From contig JBHLMN010000007.1 of the NCBI GenBank assembly GCA_048938105.1, positions 182,923 through 206,922 of the forward strand: DNA of 24,000 nt, written 5' to 3'. The translations under genes were made by a program, and so were the position numbers. Source of the DNA: Promethearchaeota archaeon. GTDB lineage: Archaea > Asgardarchaeota > Heimdallarchaeia > Hodarchaeales > Hodarchaeaceae. The first letter of the stretch is position 1, and every line of letters starts with the position of its first letter. Positions 714 to 23,337 of the stretch are shown here, piece by piece. Below the pieces are notes generated by a model that was not told the DNA's origin, searched no databases, and saw only the letters and a program-made list of their open reading frames with translations.

Positions 714-3713
714 TTAACGTCTTCTTCGCAAAAAAACAAGAATTAATAACATGGTTGAACCTACTATTAAATAAGAAAACCCTGGTGATACATTAGGCTG
801 TTCACTAGTCGTTGTTGAGGTGGATTCTGGCTCTGTCGTAGTAGGTTTCGTAGTTGTAGGTGGAATTGTAGTTGTAGGTCCGCTGGATTCAGGCTCAGGT
901 ATCTCAACTGTGAACCAAATAACAATAGATTTACCAGTATTACCCATAAGATCGCTGGCATAGAGAACAATCCTATGTGAACCTTCTGATAATGACTCTA
1001 ACAAAGTGTTCCCTGTGATAGTCACATTAATGGATCTATCGAGAGAGTACCCGATCCAGGAAGTGGGTTCGTCGATTGTGAAATTAAGCCATATGTCAGT
1101 CATGTTATATGTTGTACTATTGGTCGGATTGGTTAAGATTATACTTGGAGCAAGAGTGTCCACTGTGAACCAAACAGTGCTAGATTCACCAGTATTACCC
1201 ACAAGATCAGTTGCATAGAGAACAACCCTATGTGAACCTTCTGATAATGACCCTAACAAAGTGTTCTCTATGATAGTCCCATTAGCAGATCCATCAAGAG
1301 AGTACCCAATCCATGATGTAGGTTCATTAATTGAGAAATTTAACCAGATGTTACTTTCTGCATAAGAACTATTGGTTGGACTGATGATGACAATTTCTGG
1401 TGAAATTGGGTCAAAAAATTGGCCCCAAGTTCGGAATTCAAAGTCGAAATCTAGAAGTGGCGAACTGCTAACACCACGATAATAATTAGATCCTGAATAT
1501 CCACGCCAAAAATATCGATTATCGACATTGGGAGATGGGCTATCACTCCAAACATAGATGAAATAGGATTGACCTGGAATCAGGGAGAGCGATGAAGGTA
1601 CTAAAATAGGAACCCAACCTGTGACACTATCTGCTTCTAACACAGTGGTTTGCCATAGGGTATTTTGGCCATCAGTGATGTTAACCAGCACATTCCCAGG
1701 ATTTCCATTTTTCTGCAGATAGAGATCAATTTGAGTAAGATTAGCATACAAGGGAACAAATTCTTGCCACTGAATAACTGTCTCCTCAAACCAATAACCG
1801 TAGTTTAATCCATCTTGTGCCTGATCTAGATATACACTTCTATCACAGACCAAACTTACTGTTCTAAATGTGAAATCAAAATCTGGAGCTGAAGTAATAC
1901 TACTAATACCTCGTGTATAATTAGAGTTAAGATGTCCATCCCAAAAATAGCGATTACTTGCAGATGCGGAATCTGTATCACTCCCTACGTAAATATAATA
2001 GGACTGATCTGGAATCAAAGGGATTGTTAAATTTGTTGGAATAATTACCCATCCGCCAGTAATATCAGCTTCTGATAGAAGAGTCTGCCATATAGTTTTT
2101 TGACCATCGGTAATATTTACTAACATGTTTCCAGGATTTCCCGATTTTTGGATGTTGAGATCTATCTGAGTTAGAGTAGGATAAAAGGGTTTAAACTCTT
2201 GCCATCGAATAACTGTGTCATCAAACCAATATCCATAATCCTCTTCTTCTTGTACTTGATCTAAGAATAAACTAATATCACTTGATTGAGTCCATACCCG
2301 AAAAGCATAATCATAGGTCGGCCAACCTGATTGGACATTGGTGTCACCAAAGGTATAACTGGAAGTTATATGACCCATCCAAGCATAATAATGTGTTCCT
2401 GGAACGTGAGGATCCACACTACGGACATAAATGTAATATGAATTACCTGGAATTAAGGGAAGGGTTGATGGGAAAGAAATACTTACCCAACCTCCAGGCG
2501 CGGGAATCTCTGCTTCTAAGATAGTGGTATTCCAGATGGTAGCTTGACCATCTGTGATATTGACTAGAACATCCCCAGGGTCACCTGTCCTCTGGATATT
2601 AAGATCAAGTTGAGTTAATGTTGAAAATACTGGTTTAAATTCTTGCCATGCATTCCATGAATCACTAAAAACAAACCCATAATTCACATCTTCCTGTGCT
2701 TGATCAAGGTAGGTAGCTGGATCACTGGGAATACTCCATGTTCTAAATGCAAAATCGAACGTTGGCCAACCAGCTGCTACGCTATTTGTCCCACGATAAT
2801 AATTTGAATTAGTGCTACCGTCCCAGAAATATTTATCCGTTGTGGTACTATTAGTATCACTATTTACATAAATAAAATAGGATCGTTCTGGAATCAGAGG
2901 GAGTGCAGGATTTATTGATATATTTAACCAACCCCAAGGAAGTACAATATCTGCTTCCAACACAGTAGTGTGCCACAAAGTCCTTTCTCCATCTGAAATG
3001 TTAACTAATAAATTCCCTGGATTCCCATTTTTAACAATATAGAGATCTAAACGTGTCAAAGTTGAATATAATGGTTTGAATTCTTGCCAGCGGAATCCGT
3101 TAGCGTCAAACAAAAACCCATATGTATGTGAATTCTGGATTTGATCTAAATAGATTTCTCTGTCATTTGAGAGACTCCATGTTACAAATGTGAAATCAAA
3201 ATCTGGAGCTGAAGTAATACTACTAATACCTCGTGTATAATTAGAGTTAAGATGTCCATCCCAAACATAGCGATTACTTGGTGAAGTGGAATCTATATCA
3301 CTCCTTACGTAGATGTAATATGACTGCTCTGGGATCAAGGGAAGAGCTGATTCCAGTGAGATATTCACCCATATGGCTCCACTGGCAATATCTGCTTCTA
3401 AAACAGTAGTATTCCAAAGACTTTTGAGGCCATCAGTAATATTGACGAGGATATTTCCAGGATTACCATTCTTATCAACATTTAGATCTAGGCGAGTTAA
3501 AGTAGAATAAAGTGGTCTGAACTCTTGCCAGCGAATTGCTGTGTCATCAAACCAATAGCCGTAGTTCTCTTCCCCCTGCGTTTGGTCTAGATCTTCACCA
3601 ATCTCATATGCACCTAGTGTTTGAATTGCAGATAAACCAGATAAAATTAATGAGAACATTACTAAAATCATAAAATTTGATTTTTTTTGTCTTTTGTTAA
3701 AGAATTTTAGCAT
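714..3713 (-). CDS. Secreted cell-surface (S-layer-like) glycoprotein built from repeats, with a C-terminal PGF-CTERM archaeosortase sorting signal
   Basis: 999-aa ORF with an ATG start and GGAGAT about 9 nt upstream. Architecture, N- to C-terminus:
- Signal peptide: MLKFFNKRQKKSNFMILVMFSLILSGLSAIQTLGA.
- Five tandem 147-aa repeats.
- Two Ig-like repeats of about 84 aa.
- Thr/Pro/Ser/Glu-rich linker: GPTTTIPPTTTKPTTTEPESTSTTTSEQ.
- C-terminus: SPGFSYLIVGSTMLLILVFLRRRR (PGF motif, hydrophobic helix, Arg cluster).
I count about 20 N-x-S/T sequons. Confidence 0.9.
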   Translation of the reverse strand: MLKFFNKRQKKSNFMILVMFSLILSGLSAIQTLGAYEIGEDLDQTQGEENYGYWFDDTAIRWQEFRPLYSTLTRLDLNVDKNGNPGNILVNITDGLKSLWNTTVLEADIASGAIWVNISLESALPLIPEQSYYIYVRSDIDSTSPSNRYVWDGHLNSNYTRGISSITSAPDFDFTFVTWSLSNDREIYLDQIQNSHTYGFLFDANGFRWQEFKPLYSTLTRLDLYIVKNGNPGNLLVNISDGERTLWHTTVLEADIVLPWGWLNISINPALPLIPERSYFIYVNSDTNSTTTDKYFWDGSTNSNYYRGTNSVAAGWPTFDFAFRTWSIPSDPATYLDQAQEDVNYGFVFSDSWNAWQEFKPVFSTLTQLDLNIQRTGDPGDVLVNITDGQATIWNTTILEAEIPAPGGWVSISFPSTLPLIPGNSYYIYVRSVDPHVPGTHYYAWMGHITSSYTFGDTNVQSGWPTYDYAFRVWTQSSDISLFLDQVQEEEDYGYWFDDTVIRWQEFKPFYPTLTQIDLNIQKSGNPGNMLVNITDGQKTIWQTLLSEADITGGWVIIPTNLTIPLIPDQSYYIYVGSDTDSASASNRYFWDGHLNSNYTRGISSITSAPDFDFTFRTVSLVCDRSVYLDQAQDGLNYGYWFEETVIQWQEFVPLYANLTQIDLYLQKNGNPGNVLVNITDGQNTLWQTTVLEADSVTGWVPILVPSSLSLIPGQSYFIYVWSDSPSPNVDNRYFWRGYSGSNYYRGVSSSPLLDFDFEFRTWGQFFDPISPEIVIISPTNSSYAESNIWLNFSINEPTSWIGYSLDGSANGTIIENTLLGSLSEGSHRVVLYATDLVGNTGESSTVWFTVDTLAPSIILTNPTNSTTYNMTDIWLNFTIDEPTSWIGYSLDRSINVTITGNTLLESLSEGSHRIVLYASDLMGNTGKSIVIWFTVEIPEPESSGPTTTIPPTTTKPTTTEPESTSTTTSEQPNVSPGFSYLIVGSTMLLILVFLRRRR
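717..785 (-). other. PGF-CTERM-type sorting signal (last 23 codons of the surface protein)
   Basis: PGFSYLIVGSTMLLILVFLRRRR has the three expected parts: a Pro-Gly-Phe tripeptide, a hydrophobic segment of about 16 residues, and a basic tail. A Thr-rich linker precedes it. This matches the tripartite architecture described for archaeosortase A (ArtA) substrates. Confidence 0.7.
894..1397 (-). repeat. Two tandem coding repeats of about 84 aa (Ig-like beta-sandwich modules) in the surface protein
   Basis: Residues ~773-857 and ~858-940 align: SPTNSSYAESNIWLNFSINEPTSWIGYSLDGSANGTIIENTLLGSLSEGSHRVVLYATDLVGNTGESSTVWFTVD versus NPTNSTTYNMTDIWLNFTIDEPTSWIGYSLDRSINVTITGNTLLESLSEGSHRIVLYASDLMGNTGKSIVIWFTVE. 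At DNA level, 951-1020 versus 1206-1275 (offset 255 nt) are highly similar. Confidence 0.8.
1398..3596 (-). repeat. Five tandem coding repeats of 147 aa (441 nt) of an unrecognised domain
   Basis: The LDQ anchor recurs at residues 42, 189, 336, 483 and 629, giving periods of 147, 147, 147 and 146. The consensus is roughly YLDQxQxxxxYGYxFxDxxxxWQEFKPxYxTLTxxDLxxxKxGNPGNxLVNITDGxxxxWxTTVLEADIxxxGWVxIxxxxxLPLIPxxSYYIYVxSDxxxxxxxRYFWDGxxNSNYxRGxxSxxxxxDFDFxFRTWS. Confidence 0.9.
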
Positions 3714-7704: not shown

Positions 7705-9423
7705 ATGAGATCAGCCAATTCTGACGAAGCTACATCTTCTAAAGATTTTATTCGAAAAATGATTTCAGAAGATGTTAAAAACAATAAAAATAATGGCCGA
7801 GTCCATACTCGATTCCCTCCTGAACCCAATGGTTGGTTACACATTGGTCATGCGAAATCAATTCATCTCAATTTTAGTATTGCAAGTGAATTCAATGGAT
7901 TATGCAATTTACGGTTTGATGACACGGATCCTGCTAAAGAAAGCATGGAATATGTAGAGGCAATTAAAAAAGATATTCAGTGGCTCGGGTTCGATTGGGA
8001 AGATAGACTCTATTTTGCATCGGATTATTTTGAACAATTATATCAATTTGCTATAGAATTAATTAAAACTGGAAAGGCTTATGTTTGTGATTTAAGTGTA
8101 GAAGAAATTAAAGCTCAAAGGGGAACATCAGATGAGCCAGGGAAAGAAAGTCCATATCGTAACCGATCAGTAAAAGAAAATCTTGATCTATTTGAAAAGA
8201 TGCGTAAGGGGGAGTTTAAGGATGGTTCCCGCGTATTGAGGGCAAAAATAGACATGAAATCTCCTAATATGTTAATGCGTGACCCAATAATGTACCGAAT
8301 AAAGAGGGAACCGCATTATAGAACAGGGGACAAGTGGGTCATATATCCCAGTTATGATTATACTCATGGTCAATCAGACGCCATCGAAGGAATTACTCAT
8401 TCAATCTGCTCATTAGAATTTGAAACACATAGACCTCTATATAATTGGTATAGGGACCAACTCCTTTCTTTAAACATGCTTAAATACTGTCCAGAACAAA
8501 TTGAATTTTCACGACTAAACTTAACATTTACGGTTATGAGTAAACGACGTTTATTAGAATTAGTTGAAAATAGGCAAGTATCAGGATGGGATGATCCTCG
8601 AATGCCCACACTTGCGGGTTTACGTAGACGTGGTTTTCCTCCAGAAGCAATCAGAAATTTTTTAGCTAAAGTCGGAATATCAAAAAGAGAGAATTACATA
8701 GATGTAGGCCTTTTAGAAGCCTGCGTCCGTGAAGAAATGGATAAAAAATGCGATCGTGTAATGGCTGTACTGCATCCCTTAAAGATTGTGATTCAGAATT
8801 ATCCAGAGGATAAGGTTGAAGAACTAGATGCCCCTAATCATCCCAAAAATCCAGATAGAGGTTCACGGAAAATACCATTTTCACGAGTACTATACATTGA
8901 ACATGGCGATTTTCTTGAAGAACCTCCAAAGAAATTCTATCGACTTGCGCCTGGAAGAGAGGTTCGACTTCGATATGCATATTATATAAAATGTATTAAT
9001 GTAATTAAAGATGAAAAATCGGGGGAGATAATAGAATTGCATGCAACATTTGATCCTGAAACCAAAGGAGGATTTGCTCCAGACGGGCGAAAAGTAAAAG
9101 CTACTCTCCATTGGGTCTCAGCTGAACATGCAATTAAGGCAAAAGCACGTCTGTACGACAGACTTTTCATTAAAGAGAATCCTCTGGAAGATGCAGACTT
9201 TTCAAAAAGTTTAAATCCCAAATCATTAGAGAAGGTATCATGTTATGTGGAACCGAGTCTTCAGACCGCAAAACCAGGGATGACGTATCAATTCGAACGT
9301 TTAGGATATTTTTGTGTCGATTCAGTGGATACAACACCCGAACAACTAGTTTTTAATCGCACGATAACTTTACGGGATCCTTGGGCCAAGATTAAGAGAT
9401 CTCAAAAAGTAAAAACAACATGA
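7705..9423 (+). CDS. glnS: Glutaminyl-tRNA synthetase (GlnRS), compact bacterial-type architecture
   Basis: 572 aa. The HIGH motif is [18 protein letters not shown] and the KMSKS-equivalent is FTVMSKRRL. The protein is collinear with E. coli GlnRS as I recall it:
- [10 protein letters not shown]
- [21 protein letters not shown]
- [11 protein letters not shown]
- FSRLNL
- [17 protein letters not shown]
- LHWVSAEHA
- [12 protein letters not shown]
- FNRTITLRD
It lacks the ~200-aa N-terminal appended domain typical of eukaryotic cytosolic GlnRS. Confidence 0.9.
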
Positions 9424-9425
9424 CA

Positions 9426-9456
9426 CATTTCTTGACAAGAGAATAAAAAAGAAATG
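9426..9456. terminator. Inverted repeat plus T-run between convergent glnS and tRNA-Gln(CUG); candidate bidirectional terminator
   Basis: CATTTCTT (9426-9433) pairs with AAGAAATG (9449-9456). On the minus strand the sequence immediately 3' of the tRNA reads TCATTTCTTTTTTATTC, with a T6 run that is the complement of 9445-9450. That is a typical archaeal oligo-T termination signal. Confidence 0.4.
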
Positions 9457-9457
9457 A

Positions 9458-9529
9458 CAGCCCCGCCCAGAATCGAACTGGGGTTATCGGATTCAGAGTC
9501 CGAAGTGATAACCGCTACACCACGGGGCT
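9458..9529 (-). tRNA. tRNA-Gln (anticodon CUG), 72 nt, no intron, no encoded CCA
   Basis: The minus-strand sequence is AGCCCCG-TG-GTGT-AGCGGTTA-TCAC-T-TCGGA-CTCTGAA-TCCGA-TAAC-CCCAG-TTCGATT-CTGGG-CGGGGCT-G. The cloverleaf folds by hand:
- 7-bp acceptor stem with A1:U72
- 5-bp anticodon stem, loop CU-CUG-AA
- 5-bp T stem with T-loop TTCGATT
- discriminator G73. Confidence 0.9.
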
Positions 9530-9548
9530 TGTTTTGAATTTTTAAGTT

Positions 9549-9560
9549 TTTATATTTAAG
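9549..9560 (-). promoter_or_regulatory. Archaeal TATA box for tRNA-Gln(CUG)
   Basis: The minus strand reads CTTAAATATAAA, spanning about -31 to -20 relative to the tRNA 5' end at 9529. It is centred near -26, which is the canonical archaeal TBP-site distance. Confidence 0.55.
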
Positions 9561-9580
9561 TGAGAAAGAGAAGAAAGAAG

Positions 9581-9687
9581 CAGCCCCGCCCGGATTTGAA
9601 CCGAGGTCGAGAGGGTCAAAGCCTCTTATGCTAGTCCACATTGCCTAATTGTGGATGATAACCACAATGTGTCTACACCACGGGGCT
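9581..9687 (-). tRNA. tRNA-Gln (anticodon UUG), 107-nt gene with a ~32-nt insertion/intron in the D-loop, no encoded CCA
   Basis: The minus-strand sequence is AGCCCCG-TG-GTGT-AGAC[ACATTGTGGTTATCATCCACAATTAGGCAATG]TGGACTA-GCAT-A-AGAGG-CTTTGAC-CCTCT-CGAC-CTCGG-TTCAAAT-CCGGG-CGGGGCT-G. The acceptor stem is identical to that of the CUG isoacceptor. The anticodon loop is CU-UUG-AC. Removing 32 nt gives a normal 75-nt cloverleaf with D-loop AGACTGGACTA. Confidence 0.75.
9639..9670 (-). other. Putative tRNA intron at a non-canonical (D-loop) position; boundaries approximate
   Basis: This is my best-parse excision of ACATTGTGGTTATCATCCACAATTAGGCAATG. The segment has mutually exclusive helices: ATTGTGG/CCACAAT, CCACA/TGTGG and CACATTG/CAATGTG. 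I could not draw a strict bulge-helix-bulge motif by hand, so the exact junctions are uncertain. Confidence 0.5.
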
Positions 9688-9775: not shown

Positions 9776-11248
9776 CTATTTTGGAATTGAGAAATAAAAT
9801 GTACTACCCTTCCCCTCTCCTTCTGATTTCACCCATATCATTCCCTGATGTAATTCTATAATTGACTTCGAAATATATAGACCTAATCCAAGACCTTGGC
9901 CATGAATCTTTGTATTTCCTTGTGGTTCAAACAGACTGAAAAGCTGATCAAATTTATCTGGATGTATCCCTATTCCTTCATCTTTAACTGAGACAATATA
10001 TTCATGTGGTTTGTTTCTTAACGTAACAATAATTTCTCCATCATTTGAAAATTTTACTGAATTTTCTATTAAATTTCGAAGTACCTGATCAATTCGATCC
10101 GCATCAACCATAACTTGGTCAGGTGCTTCATTACCCTCTTTCATAAATGTAATCTTTAAATTGTTCTTTTCTACATATTTTGTTATATCATTTACAAAAT
10201 TCTCTACTATTTCTTCCAAATTAGATTGCTTTTTATTGAGTTCGAATAAATTTCTTCTTATACGAGATAAATCAAAACTTGCATCGAGGAGCTTTTCGAT
10301 TCGATGATAATTTCTATTTATGGAGTCATATATTTTCTTCCGCTGTTGTTTAGTTAAATTTCGACCAGTTTCACCTTGTTGCAATAATTCTATATTTCCC
10401 CACATTATGGATAGTGGTGTACGTATTTCGTGAGAAACAAAATCAATAAATTGACTCTTTAGAACATCCAATTCTTTTAATTCCTCCATTTGTACTTCGA
10501 TAATTTTCCATGCAATATCTCTTATATGTTCACGTGTTCTAAAGATAACTAAGATAGTAATGGTCAGGCCAACGGTATAAGTAATACCTGCTATAATTAA
10601 GATCTCCACAGTCGACCCAGTGACCTTAATTAACTCACTAATCCCACCTAACAATCCTCCAAGTCCGAAGTATTTTAAATACTGGCGTCTGATTAAAGTT
10701 GACATGGTTTTTGGAAAGAATATGTCAGTTAATGGCTTAGCAAAGAAAACTATGACTGTAAAGCCAATTAATAGTTCAGCTAACAGAAGAAAAGAAAAAA
10801 ACCATATATCGGATAAAAATAACTGATATAGGGAGTCAAAAATCATACTTCCCATATCAAACATTAAATATCTTACTATGGTAAAAAAGCCGAAAAATAA
10901 ACAAACTCCTATAATTACTTTTGTTGTTAAGGTATGATAAGGATAATTAGTATCAACGACAACAAAAATACACAGAAAAACCAGGAATGTGCTAATTGAA
11001 GCAATTGTTAATATACTAACAATTGAGTTCAACACCTCAACACCCTCCTGATTTAGAAAAGAAATATAAAGAAAATAAGAAAAAGAATAACCAGTTATAC
11101 CTCCATACATGCCTAATAGTGCTTTATTTTTCTGTGTACGAAGATCTTTACTATCAATGAGATAGAATAAGACGATAGAGAAGAATAATAAAGGAAGAAT
11201 TGTATTCAATGCATAAATAAGCTCTAAAAATAGATTTGTGAACACCAT
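9776..11248 (-). CDS. Membrane-bound sensor histidine kinase (polytopic N-terminal sensor, HisKA plus HATPase_c)
   Basis: The N-terminal ~240 aa is very hydrophobic, with roughly 6-7 predicted TM segments. The kinase motifs are:
- H-box: SQFIDFVSHEIRTPL
- N-box: DQVLRNLIENSVKFS
- G1: DEGIGI
- G2: GQGLGLGLYISK
The maximal ORF starts at GTG 11260. The first ATG at 11246-11248 gives MVFTNLF... Confidence 0.85.
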   Translation of the reverse strand: MVFTNLFLELIYALNTILPLLFFSIVLFYLIDSKDLRTQKNKALLGMYGGITGYSFSYFLYISFLNQEGVEVLNSIVSILTIASISTFLVFLCIFVVVDTNYPYHTLTTKVIIGVCLFFGFFTIVRYLMFDMGSMIFDSLYQLFLSDIWFFSFLLLAELLIGFTVIVFFAKPLTDIFFPKTMSTLIRRQYLKYFGLGGLLGGISELIKVTGSTVEILIIAGITYTVGLTITILVIFRTREHIRDIAWKIIEVQMEELKELDVLKSQFIDFVSHEIRTPLSIMWGNIELLQQGETGRNLTKQQRKKIYDSINRNYHRIEKLLDASFDLSRIRRNLFELNKKQSNLEEIVENFVNDITKYVEKNNLKITFMKEGNEAPDQVMVDADRIDQVLRNLIENSVKFSNDGEIIVTLRNKPHEYIVSVKDEGIGIHPDKFDQLFSLFEPQGNTKIHGQGLGLGLYISKSIIELHQGMIWVKSEGEGKGSTFYFSIPK

Positions 11249-11490
11249 AGAATTATCCACATCTTTTTAAGCAATTATAATTACAATTCTTTTTCAATTA
11301 GTGTAGAATCCATTTGATTTTCAATATCCTCTGTTATCTATCTCATTGATAGTTTATTAAACTACCTAAACATTACTAGAGAATCTATCTTGATGAAAAG
11401 ATTGCATAATCTGACTAGTACCCAAAAATGGCATCATAAAAACTAAGACATTAACTGAAGGTCAAACTTTCAATAGAAAGCTTCTTTGAT

Positions 11491-12714
11491 TTATGCTCCA
11501 AATTTATGAACTCTTCCAGCAATACCTAGCATTAGAGGAATTATTTGTTGGCCTATTAAATGACCTAATCCTCCTCTCATGGTTGGCCGCTCACCGAATT
11601 CAGTTACTTGATCCGAACGAACACCCTCACCAGCTATTAGAACTGGTACTGGATCAGATGAATGGTCTCGCATTACACAAGGAGTGCTATGATCACCTGT
11701 GATGCAAATGATCGTATCTGACAGTATCTCAAAAAAACGTTCAATTGCAATGTCTATCTCATCAATGAATTCCATTTTTTGAATGGGTTTGTTGTCATGG
11801 CCGAAATTATCTGTCCCCTTTACATGTAAAACCACAAATTGAGCTCTTTTAAACGAGTCCATGACTGCATTAACTTTAGAATTAAGGTCGGTTGGAACTC
11901 CTCCCGTACCTCTATGATCATTATTAATTCTCATACCACAAATAGAGGCAACTCCTTTATACAATCCACCACCAGCAACACATTCAGAACTAAGACCAAA
12001 TTTAGTTTGAAAGCTTTCTAAGTGAGGGGCTATACCTGCGCCTCTGACTAATAAATAGTTTGCAGGCAGCTTATTTTTACTGATTCTCTTTTTATTTATC
12101 TCGAGAGATTCCATTATCTCCGAAGCTTCTTGAATAAACCGTTTTAATATCCGAGCTGTTTTCTCTGCTTCAGAACTCGTGGGAATAATGGGTTTTGGTT
12201 TTTTATTTTCAATTTTCGGATCATTACCAGTCACATGATGCGAAAGGCCAGGACCTCTTAAAACTAGAGCCGCACGATGGTCTATTCCAACTTTAAATAT
12301 TGTTTCTATATCATCTATTGTTATATTCTGAAGTGCTTGTTCAATTTCTTGGGTACCCTCAGAAATTCGACCAGCACGACGATCAAGTATTATTCCATCC
12401 TCAATTGTAGCCATATTTGTTCGAAAAGCGATATCGCCTGGTCTCACTGGTACATCAGTTCCAGCAGCTTCAAAGGGCCCTCTTCCAGTATATACTTCAT
12501 AAGGATCGTACCCGAAGAGTGCAAGGTGAGCAGTATCACTGCCCGGAGTGATACCTCTACCAATCGTATGTAAATGACCAGTTATACCCATCTGGGCCAA
12601 CCTGTCCATTGTGGGTGTTTTAGCGGCCTCCAAAGGTGTTTTATTACCTAATTCTGGTATTGGGCGATCGCCCACGCCATCCATAATGAATAAGAGAAGT
12701 TTTCTTTCCTGCAT
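11491..12714 (-). CDS. apgM: 2,3-bisphosphoglycerate-independent phosphoglycerate mutase, archaeal type (ApgM)
   Basis: [40 protein letters not shown]... is the characteristic ApgM N-terminus. Metal- and phosphate-site blocks are present: [34 protein letters not shown]. The track ORF extends to TTG 12789 and would overlap the upstream gene. The ATG at 12712-12714 fits family N-termini and leaves a 46-nt spacer. Confidence 0.85.
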
Positions 12715-18414: not shown

Positions 18415-21400
18415 TTAACTACGCTTGCGAACCCAGTATATGATAGCAGCGGTAACACCAACAATTACGATACCCGTCAAGGCAAGAATGATGAATTCGA
18501 CTGGTAATCCCTTTTGTGGTTGATATTCAAAAGTGAATATTGCATCAGATGTATCACTGGTTTCAAATATCTTATCCGTAGCATTAACACGTATGAGGTA
18601 TTGATCACTAGGATTCAAACCATAATGAGAACTCAAAGGATCCCATTCGACTTGTGTGTCTTTAGTGCGGGTAGTAACTATCGCCCAGTGTTGACCTGAG
18701 TCATTACTAACCTCTACAGAGAAGAAAAGAGTATCTTCGATGTTTGGATCATTTGCCGTCCACGTGATGTTGATTGGATCCGCACCCACTGTTTCCCCTC
18801 CATTTGGATATGTTACTTCAACATTTGGGGGAAATAAATTAGTGATAGTTACATCTGTCACTGTGTACTGCACAAGAGGTAGCCAATCAAGTGATGTTCC
18901 AGTATATCCTTTGACAACGATATCGAATGCAGCGTTTTGGTCTAGAACATGGCTATCGATTACACTACTCATTCCAGTTGAGCGTTGTGAGGCTACTAAT
19001 GATGCCTTAGCAGTAACAATAAATGGAAGCCCACCAGCCCAGTCTCCCCACACATGGTAAGGTGAGGCATCGATACCCCAGTAATCAACTCCGATTATGT
19101 AGTTACCATCTTCTGGAGCTTTTATTGAAATGAGCTCTTCACTACCCTCTTCTGTACTAGTATAAATTTTTCCACTAGGAGTAATCAATACAAGCTCCAA
19201 GTCATGAGGAGGATCTCCTGGAACCCCTGGAGGATCAGGAACCGTTAACTCCATTTTAATTCTCTGGCCAGCTATTATCCCTCGCCATGTGTACGTATAA
19301 TCTAAATCAGAAGGAGTAGGTCTTACAGGCATATCACCTGGTGTAGCATTAGTAGCTGTAAAAAGACCTTCAAGAGTAATTGAATCTGTTAACTCGATTC
19401 TGATTTCTGTGTCACGGATTGAGATTGTTGAGAAGCCAGATAACGACCAAACATCAAATGTACCACTAAAGTTAGCGTGAGGTCCACTCCACAAACTTCC
19501 ACTATAAACGGGTGCATCATCGTTATCAATTGAACGAACCATAGCAGTAGGCGCGTTAGACATAAGTCCGTCTATTGCATTATGACTTATGTTTTGATAT
19601 GGAGATGGAGGATATCCGCCTATTAAAGACGGATCCCAGCTATCATCAATAGTTTGAAGTCCAGACGCGCGGTAACTGGTCAAAGTGCTGTTACTAACAC
19701 TAGTTACTGTAATACTAAAGTTCTCATAAGCCGCCATTGATCCATATTCTATGGTATGTAAGGCGATGCCAAGATACCCGAGGTGCCCACAGGATCCAGT
19801 GGAATTATCGTGTTGCCACTCTAAATCATTCATTCCTGTGGTGTTCCAACCCCACCAACCGCTGATATCCCATGTGAAATCAGTAAATAGTACATTCTGA
19901 CAGGACCAAGTTGGTGTACCATCAGTTCGACCTGTCAAATCGAAATTCTCTGATTCAGATTGTGTTGCACTATACGGACCAAAGTAATTCATGCTGCCAT
20001 AACCACTCATAAAAACATAAACATCAATCACAGTTTCGGGATCTGTCCAAGTCACATTTGTCATAACCCAAGTGGTAAAGTCATCTGATCCATTGTTAAG
20101 GAAATAATCGATGTCAACATAGTAGAATCGCCAATCACCACTTATTGGGGTTTGCCCATACCAATTCACCGCACCATAAGTAACCCCATTATCATAAGGA
20201 TGACTATCAGTACCACCCCATGTCAAAGACAGATCAGGAGGCGCTTTACCATCAACTCTGACAGATACAGGGGTGAGGGCAGCAACTACTCCTCCTTTAG
20301 TCCATTCAATAAACCCACCATACACCCCTGGAGTTGTTGAGGTTCCGATTGTGATTGTGACATTCCAAGTAGTCAACGCATTATAAGTAATATCAATTGG
20401 GGTTTGTTGCCATGGGATCTTCTGGTAGAGACGGATAGTGACCAATACATCAAGAGACGGCCAAAGCTCATTTTCGGCCCCCACATCACGGTAATAGATA
20501 GTTGGTCCTCTACTTCCTGAACCAGTCTTGTAAAAAGCGTCACCTGGTTTTCCAACATGAAGCTGATGGTTATTGCCGCTTGTAGTGTCACTTGTAACTC
20601 TACGTACCTCCCCAGAAGTCAGGGGAGAGGTGAAATCAATTCTATTATTGTTATTTAGATCATTCCAATCATGTAGAAAGACATAATTGCTATCATTGGC
20701 ATTTAAATAAACATTTTCAAAAGCACTCTTTGGATAAGTGAGATATATTACAGCGTAATCACTATTATTCCACTGGTTCATAAATGACTCATCAAAATTG
20801 TCTGCAAGAGGCCAGGTGGTATTCGCTGAAGTTGAATGTAAGATACTAGACGATTCATTCCAGAGGACAAGTTCATAAGCTACACCTTCATCCGCAGTAG
20901 TTAAACTATTGATAACCTCAACAGTCATTTGAGTTGTCTGTGATTCACCTGGGAACAGGCTCCCCGTAAATAAACTGTCATCACCAACACTTTTTCCAAA
21001 TTCTGATGGATGGGATTGCCTACGGTTTAATAAATCCTGTTTTGGAGTAAAACCATAATCAGTCCCATTATATAAGCCCATATAGTAACCCAACCACCCT
21101 GAAGAACGATCATCTTTTGTTGCTACCCGATCAAAAGAGGATGTGCTGTATGCAATAAGTAGTGGGTCTATTCCGTCTGTTGCGTTTTCATATATTGCAT
21201 TGACAGCTCGCCATGCGTCAACACGTCCTGCACCTTGCCGAAAAGGATCATAACCGAGGTCAATTGCAGTTGATTCCATTATAGCTTTTACAATCCCTGG
21301 AGTATCTGTATGGGGTAAAACACCACAGTCCAAACCAGCTTGAAACATCAATGCGGCAACTCCAGCCGCTAACGGGCAAGCTAGGCTTGTACCACTAAAG

Positions 21401-23337
21401 ATACCAACCGCATTTGACCCATCTCCTTGTCCATAATCCAATGCGTCTACAGTAAATGTCCCTGCGCCTATAGCAACTATGTTTGGTTTTGGAACACCAG
21501 AGGGCATGGGCCCACCACTTGAAAAACTGACAATCTGATCTGTACCTTGTTCCCAATAGCTGTTATTATCATAAACATCTTCAAAGATATGAAAACTAGT
21601 ACTAGCCCCAACCGTCAATGCTCCAGCACTACTTGGTGAAAATCCAGTCCCATATCCTGGTCCATCGTTTCCAGCAGCCATGAGAATCAATGTGCTGTTC
21701 CAACTGGAGAGGTAATCAATAAACCAACTATTCCAATCATATCCCCACACAAAATCAAACGTCTCGAAACCTATCCACCCCCAAGAATTACTTAGAATGT
21801 CAGCTTTGTGATTCCCAGTATATGTCCAGTTAAGGAAATTTAGGTTTGGTTCTTGACTAACTATTGGATCCCACCCTGTTCCCCAGAGCCAACCCCAAGG
21901 AACGATGTTGCGGATCGCCATTACTTCAGCTGCAGGAGCTATGCCTGGAAGCTTATACATCGTTCCATTTCCGTACACATCATAATCAATGATTCCTCGA
22001 CCTGCTGCTGAAGCGGCTGTACTAGTGCCATGACCGTCATAGTCATTTATAAAAGCAAATCCAACCCCAGTATCATTAATTCCCCTCACTAATCCTCCAG
22101 TCATGATGTCGAAAATATCATATGTATTCGCCAAGCAACCTAAACTGAAATCATTAATACCATCCTTATCAAAATCAGTAGCTAATACCTCAGTTCCATC
22201 TCCCCATCGATGGGGATCATCAAGGTTATTAGTAAAATCCCAATCTGCTATTGGTCCAGCTGATAATTCATTCCATTTTGCAGTTAAATTCCAGGATGTT
22301 TCCCAATCGATATAGAGAGTATCATATACAGAGGAAGTAGTTGTGTCACTAAGGATGAAGAGGAAGAATTGAAGCAAATATGGCATACCAGATGCTATAG
22401 CTGAAGCTATTCCAACCTTGAAAGTACCAGATAAGCTTGGAACCCCAGTGCTTGCATTTCCAATATAAATATCCTCAGAATCAAAAATTAAACTCGAATT
22501 TAAAAACGATGCTATGTCTCCGACCCAAATCGAGTAGCTATAGTTATTCAGGGGTAAAATTTCTTCAGTCCGAGAAACAGATACATTTGTAATAGCTATT
22601 CCAACCCCCTCACCATCAAAACTTGTTGGATAGCCCGAAGAATCGACCGCATAGGCTGTACTAAGATCAGTAACGCCAAAATCGGTTCCTGAGTCAACAA
22701 TACCGATTGTGATACCTGTACCGTCTATTGGATAACTAAATTCACCTTTTCCTGTAACATTATTGACTCGATCAGCCCCCATTATTTTTTGTGTAGAGAA
22801 TTGTTTATCGATTATCTCGGGTTCATTTTTCTTAAATTCTGTTTTTCTATCGGCAATTACAACCCCAACATCAGGTCTCGAATATACACGTCGCAATGCT
22901 TTAGGACTTGTAACATATCCTTGTATGATGTAACCACCGTTGAGTTTAGCTGCTTGGACGACTGTCATGTGCTCACTAAGGGTATTAAAATCAACTTCAG
23001 GTGTAGCCCCCATAAGAAAATAAATTCTATTCTTGTACGATCGAACGTCCTCAGGAATTTCATTAGTATCGAGGTAGGAACGAAGTAGGGGATCTAGAAA
23101 TTGATACTGATCATATTGTGGTTTTGAATAGCTACTAGGAGGAGGATTTCCAAAAAAATTACTAGAGAAGATCTCAGAAGGTGTACTACTAAATGATGGG
23201 GTAGAAAAAATCAAAGCTGGCATGTTTGCGCAAATTGTGATAATGAAAATTGTTATGAGGGTCATTGAGACTGATTGTCTCTTCTTAAGAATTTGGAATT
23301 GATGGATCATTTTTCTCGTCTCTTTACAGTAGAGCAT
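18415..23337 (-). CDS. Giant membrane-anchored extracellular subtilase (peptidase S8, pyrolysin/TPP-II-like spacing) with PPC-like and Ig-like C-terminal modules
   Basis: 1640 aa. Features, N- to C-terminus:
- Signal/anchor: KKRQSVSMTLITIFIITICANMPALIFS.
- Propeptide-like segment at ~95-160.
- Catalytic Asp in GIVDSGTD (D215, codon 22693-22695).
- Catalytic His in DGHGTSTAASAAG (H436, 22030-22032).
- Oxyanion Asn in AAGNDGPG (N557).
- Catalytic Ser in SGTSLACPLAAGVAAL (S651, 21385-21387).
- PPC-like module at ~1345-1445: HDLELVLITPSGKIYTSTEEGSEELISIKAPEDGNYIIGVDYWG.
- Module at ~1503-1605: TYPNGGETVGADPINITWTA...SNDSGQHWAIV...YLIRVNATD.
- C-terminal TM helix FIILALTGIVIVGVTAAIIYW followed by RKRS.
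An alternative start is ATG 23308-23310 (MIHQFQILKK...). Confidence 0.9.
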   Translation of the reverse strand: MLYCKETRKMIHQFQILKKRQSVSMTLITIFIITICANMPALIFSTPSFSSTPSEIFSSNFFGNPPPSSYSKPQYDQYQFLDPLLRSYLDTNEIPEDVRSYKNRIYFLMGATPEVDFNTLSEHMTVVQAAKLNGGYIIQGYVTSPKALRRVYSRPDVGVVIADRKTEFKKNEPEIIDKQFSTQKIMGADRVNNVTGKGEFSYPIDGTGITIGIVDSGTDFGVTDLSTAYAVDSSGYPTSFDGEGVGIAITNVSVSRTEEILPLNNYSYSIWVGDIASFLNSSLIFDSEDIYIGNASTGVPSLSGTFKVGIASAIASGMPYLLQFFLFILSDTTTSSVYDTLYIDWETSWNLTAKWNELSAGPIADWDFTNNLDDPHRWGDGTEVLATDFDKDGINDFSLGCLANTYDIFDIMTGGLVRGINDTGVGFAFINDYDGHGTSTAASAAGRGIIDYDVYGNGTMYKLPGIAPAAEVMAIRNIVPWGWLWGTGWDPIVSQEPNLNFLNWTYTGNHKADILSNSWGWIGFETFDFVWGYDWNSWFIDYLSSWNSTLILMAAGNDGPGYGTGFSPSSAGALTVGASTSFHIFEDVYDNNSYWEQGTDQIVSFSSGGPMPSGVPKPNIVAIGAGTFTVDALDYGQGDGSNAVGIFSGTSLACPLAAGVAALMFQAGLDCGVLPHTDTPGIVKAIMESTAIDLGYDPFRQGAGRVDAWRAVNAIYENATDGIDPLLIAYSTSSFDRVATKDDRSSGWLGYYMGLYNGTDYGFTPKQDLLNRRQSHPSEFGKSVGDDSLFTGSLFPGESQTTQMTVEVINSLTTADEGVAYELVLWNESSSILHSTSANTTWPLADNFDESFMNQWNNSDYAVIYLTYPKSAFENVYLNANDSNYVFLHDWNDLNNNNRIDFTSPLTSGEVRRVTSDTTSGNNHQLHVGKPGDAFYKTGSGSRGPTIYYRDVGAENELWPSLDVLVTIRLYQKIPWQQTPIDITYNALTTWNVTITIGTSTTPGVYGGFIEWTKGGVVAALTPVSVRVDGKAPPDLSLTWGGTDSHPYDNGVTYGAVNWYGQTPISGDWRFYYVDIDYFLNNGSDDFTTWVMTNVTWTDPETVIDVYVFMSGYGSMNYFGPYSATQSESENFDLTGRTDGTPTWSCQNVLFTDFTWDISGWWGWNTTGMNDLEWQHDNSTGSCGHLGYLGIALHTIEYGSMAAYENFSITVTSVSNSTLTSYRASGLQTIDDSWDPSLIGGYPPSPYQNISHNAIDGLMSNAPTAMVRSIDNDDAPVYSGSLWSGPHANFSGTFDVWSLSGFSTISIRDTEIRIELTDSITLEGLFTATNATPGDMPVRPTPSDLDYTYTWRGIIAGQRIKMELTVPDPPGVPGDPPHDLELVLITPSGKIYTSTEEGSEELISIKAPEDGNYIIGVDYWGIDASPYHVWGDWAGGLPFIVTAKASLVASQRSTGMSSVIDSHVLDQNAAFDIVVKGYTGTSLDWLPLVQYTVTDVTITNLFPPNVEVTYPNGGETVGADPINITWTANDPNIEDTLFFSVEVSNDSGQHWAIVTTRTKDTQVEWDPLSSHYGLNPSDQYLIRVNATDKIFETSDTSDAIFTFEYQPQKGLPVEFIILALTGIVIVGVTAAIIYWVRKRS

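Follow-up and report, generated by a model that had tools for sequence, protein, structure and literature searches.

How an archaeon comes to carry a bacterial-type glutaminyl-tRNA synthetase (GlnRS) directly beside two tRNA-Gln genes, and whether enzyme and tRNAs are matched to each other, is the question raised by the glnS locus of Promethearchaeota archaeon analysed here, which lies in a 24,000-nucleotide stretch of contig JBHLMN010000007.1 (the whole of this stretch is called the window below). Two reviews published in 2022 state that no archaeon, or almost none, has GlnRS, and cite the explanation that archaeal tRNA-Gln is unusable by this enzyme, so that a transferred gene would be useless (PMC9499178, PMC8762117). 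We compared the window with other loci (L numbers) and proteins (P numbers), and propose that an ancestor of the Heimdallarchaeia/Hodarchaeales-type group probably acquired a bacterial GlnRS once, and that the archaeal tRNAs linked to its gene were retuned to G73 and A37 and are charged directly.

The window protein scored 723 bits on the TIGR00440 glnS equivalog (cut-off 425.8) and 370 bits on the archaeal gltX model, below that model's cut-off of 401.75; the cut-offs of the bacterial glutamyl-tRNA synthetase (GluRS) models in NCBIfam were likewise unreached. In addition to the HIGH and VMSKR signatures (Table 1), it contains PF00749 (tRNA-synt_1c, the class I E/Q catalytic domain), PF03950 and PF20974 (both C-terminal barrels), and its alignment with the GlnRS of E. 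coli runs from end to end (query 12–563 against chain 7–551). Scores against PDB sequences were highest for the GlnRS of P. aeruginosa (697 bits) and this E. coli enzyme (672), followed by those of D. radiodurans (489), human (472) and yeast (421), with eukaryotic and archaeal GluRS at 274 and 195 bits. We take the glutamine pocket of the E. coli enzyme to consist of R30, C229, Y211 and Q255, and its anticodon pockets of R341, R402, Q517 and R520; in the alignment all eight of these positions were kept in the window protein, and the equivalents of R341, R402, Q517 and R520 were invariant in 19/19 Asgard-labelled sequences. A preliminary description of this locus had called the gene a full-length, E. 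coli-like GlnRS ending at 9423 and had named a discriminating GluRS as the alternative; the model scores, signatures and alignment bear out the first, and by its sequence the open reading frame (ORF) at 7705–9423 is a true full-length GlnRS, with GluRS ruled out.

The top NCBIfam model for this protein was the GlnRS/YqeY fusion NF011291 (838 bits), which is why the product name assigned by the Prokaryotic Genome Annotation Pipeline (PGAP) follows that model. The match covers only model positions 2–565 of 769, and as the protein ends at amino acid 572 it has no YqeY (GatB-like) domain. It is also without an N-terminal extension, and the appended N-terminal domain of eukaryotic type is absent from it. 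Nine homologues (P0056, P0057, P0065–P0067, P0085, P0102, P0103 and P0106) that are 66–68% identical to the window enzyme are 692–708 amino acids long and have an extra PF01588 tRNA_bind (EMAP-like) domain.

Both tRNA-Gln genes of the window end no more than 264 nt past the glnS stop codon and are followed by an oligo-T tract. They share A1:U72, G2:C71, C3:G70, G10 and G73, encode no CCA, and have the anticodon loops CUCUGAA (A37, A38) in tRNA-Gln(CUG) and CUUUGAC (A37, C38) in tRNA-Gln(UUG). The tail-to-tail pair with CUG and UUG anticodons, which the preliminary description had folded by hand, was recovered with ARAGORN and Rfam (the UUG gene with ARAGORN, after removal of its intron), and our feature comparison agreed with the A1:U72, G2:C71, G10 and G73 that it had listed for both; it had overlooked that G73 is not the ordinary archaeal state, and that the intron lies in the D-loop rather than the anticodon loop.

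The intron was placed by comparison with the intronless tRNA-Gln(UUG) orthologues of L003, L004, L083 and L211, which read AGCCCCGUGGUGUAG followed directly by UGGACUAGCAUAAGAGGCUUUGACCCUCU...; in the window gene and in L002 a 34-nt insertion sits exactly at that junction, which may shift by 1 nt because a G is repeated there. The intron of L002, which is from a 90%-identical relative, is homologous and differs from that of the window by 3 substitutions. ARAGORN in its default mode made no call for a tRNA-Gln(UUG) at 9581–9687, and Rfam gave 26.9 bits, under its 29-bit threshold and with the 5' end misplaced. ARAGORN's intron mode, which models anticodon-loop introns only, returned a tRNA-Ser(ACU) at these positions; this was a false call, and the orthologue comparison identified tRNA-Gln(UUG) instead. 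When the insertion was deleted in silico, ARAGORN gave a clean tRNA-Gln(UUG) cloverleaf. A tRNA with this anticodon is needed because CAA outnumbers CAG in the window ORFs (143 vs 70 codons). The minimum free energy fold of the intron is a 7-bp hairpin, and insertions at the same D-loop site were present in other archaeal tRNA-Gln genes of the metagenome sample described below, such as L165. In a 71%-identical Hodarchaeota relative, the tRNA-Gln(UUG) gene (L210:11884–11986) has no D-loop intron and carries an insertion of ~30 nt at the boundary of the variable loop and the T-stem; with this insertion taken out ARAGORN called tRNA-Gln(UUG), and its different location suggests that the intron sites of this tRNA vary among close lineages.

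The order glnS, tRNA-Gln(CUG), tRNA-Gln(UUG) was found in 9/13 Asgard glnS loci, a recurrence that goes beyond chance. The pair is convergent with glnS and no more than 200 nt downstream of it in seven of them (the window, L002, L003, L004, L211, L210 and L088), and is 1.3–2.9 kb from glnS in L085 and L083. The recurrence of the linked pair involves independent assemblies, with L001 coming from a separate sequencing run and L003 lying on a 4.9 Mb chromosome record. Each of the 18 glnS-linked Asgard tRNA-Gln genes had the acceptor stem AGCCCCG/CGGGGCU (A1:U72, G2:C71, C3:G70), G10, G73, A37 and an anticodon loop of CUCUGAA or CUUUGAC/A, with variation at other positions; those of the window's subclade encode no CCA. 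The identity set of E. coli tRNA-Gln comprises G73, U1-A72, G2-C71, G3-C70, G10, U34, U35, G36, A37 and U38 (PMC9976931, Table 1). Of this set, the window tRNAs and every one of the 18 linked Asgard tRNAs carry G73, G2:C71, G10, U35, G36 and A37. The discriminator of canonical archaeal tRNA-Gln is A73 (PMC9499178, citing Marck and Grosjean), and the match of G73 to the bacterial identity rules is therefore a derived change.

The loci L085 and L088 have, in addition, a third tRNA-Gln(UUG) gene with the same scaffold and with A73 and G37 (L085:16505–16577 and L088:13438–13510), which in both is located past an intervening protein gene and adjoins a Trm112 gene. The A73 copy of L085 has C33 where U33 is universal. 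The tRNA-Gln genes of L085 and L088 encode CCA, except for this same copy, which is followed by TCA. A further arrangement was seen on the metagenome contig Ga0209427_10058486 (L127:1546–3627), whose glnS branches just outside the Asgard clade. After this glnS come tRNA-Gln(UUG), then an unusual tRNA, then tRNA-Gln(CUG). In the unusual tRNA the anticodon loop is 8 nt long (UCUUCAGA) and A1.G72 is mismatched; it possibly reads a frameshift or a stop codon, and it and the tRNA-Gln(CUG) downstream, the two that were read, encode CCA.

An association between G73 and GlnRS was also sought from the tRNA side, by scanning metagenomes of the Joint Genome Institute (JGI) with the 5' half of archaeal tRNA-Gln (AGCCCCGUNGUGUAG), a pattern that takes no account of position 73 or of the genes nearby. 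The 59 loci with a Gln-type tRNA comprised 51 with A73 (mostly with G37), seven with G73 and one with U73, and a GlnRS gene was present in 3/7 of the G73 loci and 0/51 of the A73 loci (Fisher one-sided p = 0.001). The three positive loci (L121, L161 and L201) have an archaeal context, including TFB (399 bits) and RtcA. Their GlnRS shares only 59% identity with the window enzyme, falls among Planctomycetota-type sequences and was separate from the Asgard clade in 92/100 replicates; the labels of its close homologues, several of which are on megabase-scale records, are Thermoplasmata, Thermoplasmatales or Methanomassiliicoccales. On the Thermoplasmatales chromosome record CP070798 (L212) the order is tRNA-Gln(CUG, G73), glnS, tRNA-Gln(UUG, G73), all on one strand. 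We conclude from this separate branching that the Thermoplasmatota GlnRS is a second acquisition, distinct from the Asgard one, and since G73 accompanies it at L121, L161, L201 and L212, the discriminator has changed in the same way in a second archaeal phylum. Many metagenome-assembled genomes (MAGs) of Thermoplasmatota have a bacterial-type GlnRS (proteins P0272–P0389). Of the labelled sequences, the one nearest to the Thermoplasmatota enzymes is on a 'TA06' contig (L072), in whose context no family matches were found.

As a mechanism, we suggest that the ancestor of the Heimdall/Hod-type group received its GlnRS gene from bacteria just once, and that archaeal tRNA-Gln was afterwards retuned (G73, A37) for use by the imported enzyme, which would attach glutamine straight onto these tRNAs. 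G73 (and A37) may have been selected as substrate features, and perhaps also for removal of the tRNAs from the route through GluRS and GatDE. Such retuning would amount to overcoming the tRNA incompatibility long proposed as a bar to GlnRS in archaea, and tight linkage could hold the enzyme and its tRNA substrates together. In the basal relatives L085 and L088, where the extra A73/G37 tRNA-Gln(UUG) has been kept, its retention suggests that both routes coexist, and direct and indirect charging may run side by side on separate tRNA sets.

The alternative that survives best is that GlnRS is present and the G73 tRNAs are still mainly served by the indirect route, through a non-discriminating GluRS and GatDE, so that G73/A37 and the linkage are neutral or otherwise used, for example in regulation or redundancy. 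It can draw on the retention of A1:U72, the pair used by amidotransferases, on the persistence of A73/G37 copies in L085 and L088, on L213, which has glnS beside an A73 tRNA, and on L086 and L209, where glnS adjoins archaeal gltX. However, G73 and A37 did not vary among the linked Asgard tRNAs although other positions did, and G73 recurs in the independent Thermoplasmatota acquisition and is statistically tied to GlnRS adjacency. Moreover, the catalytic and anticodon-binding residues remain fully conserved although identity within the clade has dropped to 68%, implying that a functional synthetase is under purifying selection. We regard continued dependence on the indirect route as unlikely.

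Two enzyme positions that meet the acceptor end, those of E. coli L136, which stabilises the opened 1:72 pair, and D235, an acceptor-stem minor-groove reader and the site of classic mischarging mutants, were compared over 19 Asgard-labelled and 79 bacterial sequences. The L136 column has Ser in 7/19 Asgard-labelled sequences and Leu in 75/79 bacterial ones; the D235 column has Thr in 11/19 Asgard-labelled sequences and in none of the bacterial ones, of which 73/79 have Asp or Asn. Thr at the D235 position together with Ser at the L136 position is particular to the window's subclade, and the basal Asgard members P0029, P0036, P0070 and P0111 keep Leu plus Asp or Asn. The notion that D235 is a conserved bacterial residue lost in Asgard archaea proved only partly true: bacteria are themselves divided between D and N, and the position is for this reason not family-defining. 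We infer that the changes from L136 to Ser and from D235 to Thr in the window's subclade are consistent with stepwise adaptation to the archaeal A1:U72 / C3:G70 stem.

The origin of the enzyme was examined through identities and trees. Window GlnRS is 62–67% identical to proteins of named bacteria (Desulfobacterota, Planctomycetota, Nitrospirota, Cloacimonadota and others), 57% to P. aeruginosa GlnRS, 46% to the human and 42% to the fungal enzymes, and 31% to Asgard GluRS of archaeal type. Trees were built by neighbour-joining from simple distances with 100 bootstraps and rooted on the archaeal GluRS of L086 (NF003169, 522 bits), with the human, yeast, second fungal and P. aeruginosa sequences taken from PDB alignments; the first contained 203 sequences, and the second was enlarged by 120 full-length sequences, each representing a 50%-identity cluster of a library of 1.84 billion proteins. 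In the first tree 19 Asgard-labelled and 28 unlabelled proteins formed one clade (86% bootstrap), which in 92% of replicates was not sister to all remaining prokaryotes, and all prokaryotic GlnRS, Asgard included, stood apart from human and fungal GlnRS in 100/100 bootstraps. In the second tree the Asgard clade (96%) formed the end of a ladder whose other steps were bacterial groups; the YqeY-fusion forms and the eukaryotic clade branched much deeper, and at least three nested clades surrounded it before any eukaryotic reference in 100% of replicates. The simplest reading of these trees is one transfer of GlnRS from bacteria to Asgard archaea, in the ancestor of the group.

A native Asgard GlnRS, ancestral or sister to that of eukaryotes and passed from an Asgard lineage to bacteria, would be attractive in that Heimdallarchaeia are the archaeal group nearest eukaryotes, that GlnRS is widespread and monophyletic within them, and that the classical view already has bacteria gaining the enzyme by transfer. 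This alternative is nevertheless very improbable in view of the far lower identity to human and fungal GlnRS (42–46%) than to many bacterial phyla (62–67%), of the eukaryotic references lying outside all prokaryotic GlnRS in every bootstrap, of the Asgard position at the tip of the ladder, with deeper branches for P. aeruginosa, the YqeY-fusion forms and other representatives, and of the missing eukaryote-type N-terminal domain. Of the two origins that the preliminary description had offered, the nesting of the Asgard clade within bacteria favours a horizontally acquired bacterial-type glnS beside its substrates over a direct pathway native to the lineage. Because prokaryotic GlnRS stands apart from the eukaryotic enzyme and the Asgard clade is nested in bacteria, the trees lend no support to the suggestion that the gene sheds light on how eukaryotic GlnRS arose.

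That the tRNA genes moved from bacteria together with glnS as one cassette is more improbable still. It would be in keeping with L011 (Anaerolineae-labelled; 10001–11873), where a bacterial-type tRNA-Gln(CUG) directly follows glnS tail-to-tail in the same geometry as in the window. The scaffold of that tRNA is unrelated, however, as it is in the other bacterial tRNA-Gln genes found near glnS (L014 and L052): all three begin UGGGG (UGGGGxA...CCCCAG), 2/3 encode CCA, and only 3/77 bacterial loci have any tRNA-Gln within 10 kb. The linked Asgard tRNAs instead have the acceptor stem and the D-arm seen in ordinary archaeal tRNA-Gln with A73 (the window tRNAs have the 5' half AGCCCCGUxGUGUAG in common with the 51 A73 metagenome loci), and one window tRNA holds an archaeal-type intron. 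As their scaffold is unlike that of bacteria and is shared with archaeal A73 tRNAs, the linked tRNAs are to be seen as archaeal genes that gained two bacterial determinants; we thus consider them archaeal in descent, carrying a derived G73/A37 state.

The host of the window is an Asgard archaeon of Heimdallarchaeia/Hodarchaeales type, in agreement with the archaeal or Asgard affiliation that had been supposed. The identical protein in NCBI is a "MAG: Promethearchaeota archaeon" entry on a 269-kb contig, and homologues at 68–90% identity are labelled Hodarchaeales, Hodarchaeota or Heimdallarchaeota, two of them being on the Heimdallarchaeota chromosome records CP070695 (4.9 Mb) and CP070760 (3.2 Mb). 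The genes flanking glnS in relatives include those for L40e, RtcA, CDC48, RadA and Arf/Roc GTPases, among which L40e, RadA and the Arf/Roc GTPases are TFB-independent markers of archaea and Asgard archaea, and the G+C content of the window is uniform and low (37%). The hallmarks pointed out at the outset were all found: ApgM (514 bits on NF003104), a TATA-like box upstream of a tRNA gene, an intron-bearing tRNA without CCA, and a protein (714–3713, minus strand) that ends in the PGF-CTERM tail ...SPGFSYLIVGSTMLLILVFLRRRR. A bacterial contaminant, or a chimeric or mis-binned contig on which faulty assembly had put the gene beside archaeal tRNAs, would fit a protein of bacterial type with a PGAP name taken from a bacterial model, but the same arrangement in independent assemblies and samples (L001, L002, L003, L004, L083, L088, L210 and L211) argues that contamination is excluded, and with the archaeal flanking genes and even G+C content we give it almost no credence.

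Table 1. Positions in the window of glnS, the two tRNA-Gln genes and their parts.
Feature	Position	Strand	Basis or remark
glnS, bacterial-type glutamine--tRNA ligase	7705..9423	+	572 aa; without C-terminal YqeY domain
HIGH class I signature	7840..7851	+	aa 46-49
Ser142, opposite E. coli Leu136	8128..8130	+	alignment
Thr241, opposite E. coli Asp235	8425..8427	+	alignment
VMSKR (KMSKS-type) signature	8533..8547	+	aa 277-281; opposite E. coli V267-R271 in alignment
tRNA-Gln(CUG), 72 nt	9458..9529	-	ARAGORN; Rfam 63 bits; convergent with glnS
TATA-like element TTAAATATAAAAA	9547..9559	-	-30 to -18 of tRNA-Gln(CUG), read from sequence; putative promoter role
tRNA-Gln(UUG) gene, 107 nt with intron, mature form 73 nt	9581..9687	-	regular expression, orthologue comparison; spliced form by ARAGORN
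tRNA-Gln(UUG) exon 2, position 16 to discriminator G73	9581..9638	-	orthologue comparison; ARAGORN on spliced form
34-nt non-canonical D-loop intron ACACAUUGUGGUUAUCAUCCACAAUUAGGCAAUG, between positions 15 and 16	9639..9672	-	orthologue comparison
tRNA-Gln(UUG) exon 1, positions 1-15	9673..9687	-	same as first 15 nt of intronless L003, L004, L211

Other genes of the window and of related loci may be noted. The protein with the PGF-CTERM tail has 999 amino acids, with Ig-like and DUF4082 domains and a Thr-rich linker, and the 1640-amino acid product of 18415–23337 (minus strand) has weak subtilisin-like matches and a terminal transmembrane helix followed by basic residues; both are large proteins that are secreted or located at the surface. 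The gene immediately past the two tRNAs (9776–11260, minus strand) encodes a sensor histidine kinase of bacterial style (HisKA/HATPase), and no response regulator was seen among the window ORFs of at least 80 amino acids. In one Asgard subclade (L086:2467–6153 and L209:10001–13795) an archaeal-type gltX (522 bits on NF003169) directly follows glnS; this glnS-gltX unit is downstream of the genes for RtcA and ribosomal protein L40e, with no tRNA-Gln inside the locus.

Several observations weigh against the retuning of linked tRNAs for direct charging after a single transfer. In four of the 13 Asgard loci glnS is without a tRNA-Gln in its vicinity, and the window tRNAs miss three E. coli determinants, having A1:U72 (still a weak pair), C3:G70 and A38 or C38. 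The three GlnRS-positive G73 loci counted in the Fisher test are mutually related. On the Thermoplasmatota chromosome record CP070739 (L213) an A73 tRNA-Gln lies 250 nt downstream of glnS, which refutes G73 as an absolute rule for glnS-linked tRNAs; and A37 is limited to the Asgard clade, the G73 tRNAs of Thermoplasmatota having G37, which rules out A37 as a universal correlate of GlnRS linkage. The trees are distance trees only, with sampling tilted towards relatives of the query. Lastly, a strict bulge-helix-bulge (two 3-nt bulges with a 4-bp helix between them) was not found at the intron junctions, either by hand or with an exhaustive script; the nearest structure was a 3-bp central helix with 3-nt bulges, and a permissive scan gave uninformative noise, so that splicing of the intron is presumed from necessity.

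A broader proposition extends to both phyla: that the Heimdall/Hod-type Asgard archaea and the unrelated Thermoplasmatota independently domesticated a bacterial GlnRS with a change from A73 to G73 (in the Asgard group also from G37 to A37) in tRNAs beside glnS, and that some Heimdall relatives have, in a single cell, two tRNA-Gln sets insulated from each other, G73/A37 for GlnRS and A73/G37 for GluRS with GatDE. We put this forward tentatively, and hold it to be somewhat short of an even chance. If it is true, the repeated domestication would be a natural demonstration that tRNA incompatibility barred GlnRS from archaea, as was proposed 25 years ago, and of how the bar was crossed.

The presence of GlnRS in archaea is not in itself new to databases. 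Public annotation already gives the name of the enzyme to proteins from dozens of MAGs of Asgard archaea and Thermoplasmatota, a transfer of GlnRS to archaea is touched on in one review that offers no detail (PMC8879553), and a preprint notes in passing a GlnRS beside cox genes in Hodarchaeales and Kariarchaeaceae (bioRxiv 10.1101/2024.07.04.601786). Full-text searches of open-access literature brought up no account of the discriminator switch, of the linkage of the genes, of the dual tRNA sets or of co-adaptation of GlnRS and tRNA-Gln in Asgard archaea or Thermoplasmatota. The novelty considered in the preliminary description is therefore weakened, as the enzyme was already annotated in the lineage and mentioned in the preprint; what is new is the co-adapted, linked tRNA-Gln genes, a variant of the known direct pathway.

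The rule that archaea lack GlnRS has been broken at least twice, each time with a signature of adaptation on the tRNA, the bacterial discriminator G73, and not on the enzyme alone. The old tRNA-incompatibility hypothesis becomes testable with a few transcripts and one recombinant enzyme. The locus may serve as a natural example of how, following horizontal transfer, a cell rewires a single entry of its genetic-code machinery, and would add to the evidence that bacterial parts have replaced components of translation in the archaeal lineage closest to eukaryotes.

Among known systems, the closest to the window is the bacterial direct pathway (E. coli GlnS, PDB 1GTR and 1QTQ; P. aeruginosa, 5BNZ), with which it shares the full-length enzyme architecture with HIGH and VMSKR, the glutamine-pocket and anticodon-binding residues (at the 57% identity to P. 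aeruginosa GlnRS given above), and G73, G2:C71, G10, U35, G36 and A37 in the tRNAs. It differs in its archaeal host, in a tRNA body with A1:U72, C3:G70, no CCA, an intron, archaeal promoter elements and no U38, and in the Ser and Thr that the enzyme has at E. coli L136 and D235. The archaeal indirect pathway, in which a non-discriminating GluRS and GatDE act on A73 tRNA-Gln, has the same tRNA scaffold and A1:U72, and basal Asgard relatives still keep an A73/G37 copy of the kind that it uses, whereas the window has a dedicated GlnRS and linked tRNAs with G73/A37 instead of A73/G37. The Deinococcus-type GlnRS-YqeY fusion (PDB 2HZ7) supplied the top NCBIfam model for the window protein, which is without YqeY and which the D. 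radiodurans enzyme matches at only 489 bits. The Thermoplasmatota loci L121, L161, L201 and L212 resemble the window in having a bacterial-type GlnRS flanked by G73 tRNA-Gln of archaeal scaffold, but represent a separate acquisition at 59% identity, with tRNAs on the glnS strand and G37, and with A73 in one genome (L213). In the GluRS2/tRNA-Gln system of H. pylori one enzyme-tRNA pair is likewise specialised through acceptor-stem determinants (PMC9976931); GluRS2 charges Glu for later amidation, however, whereas the system of the window is predicted to depend on a true GlnRS.

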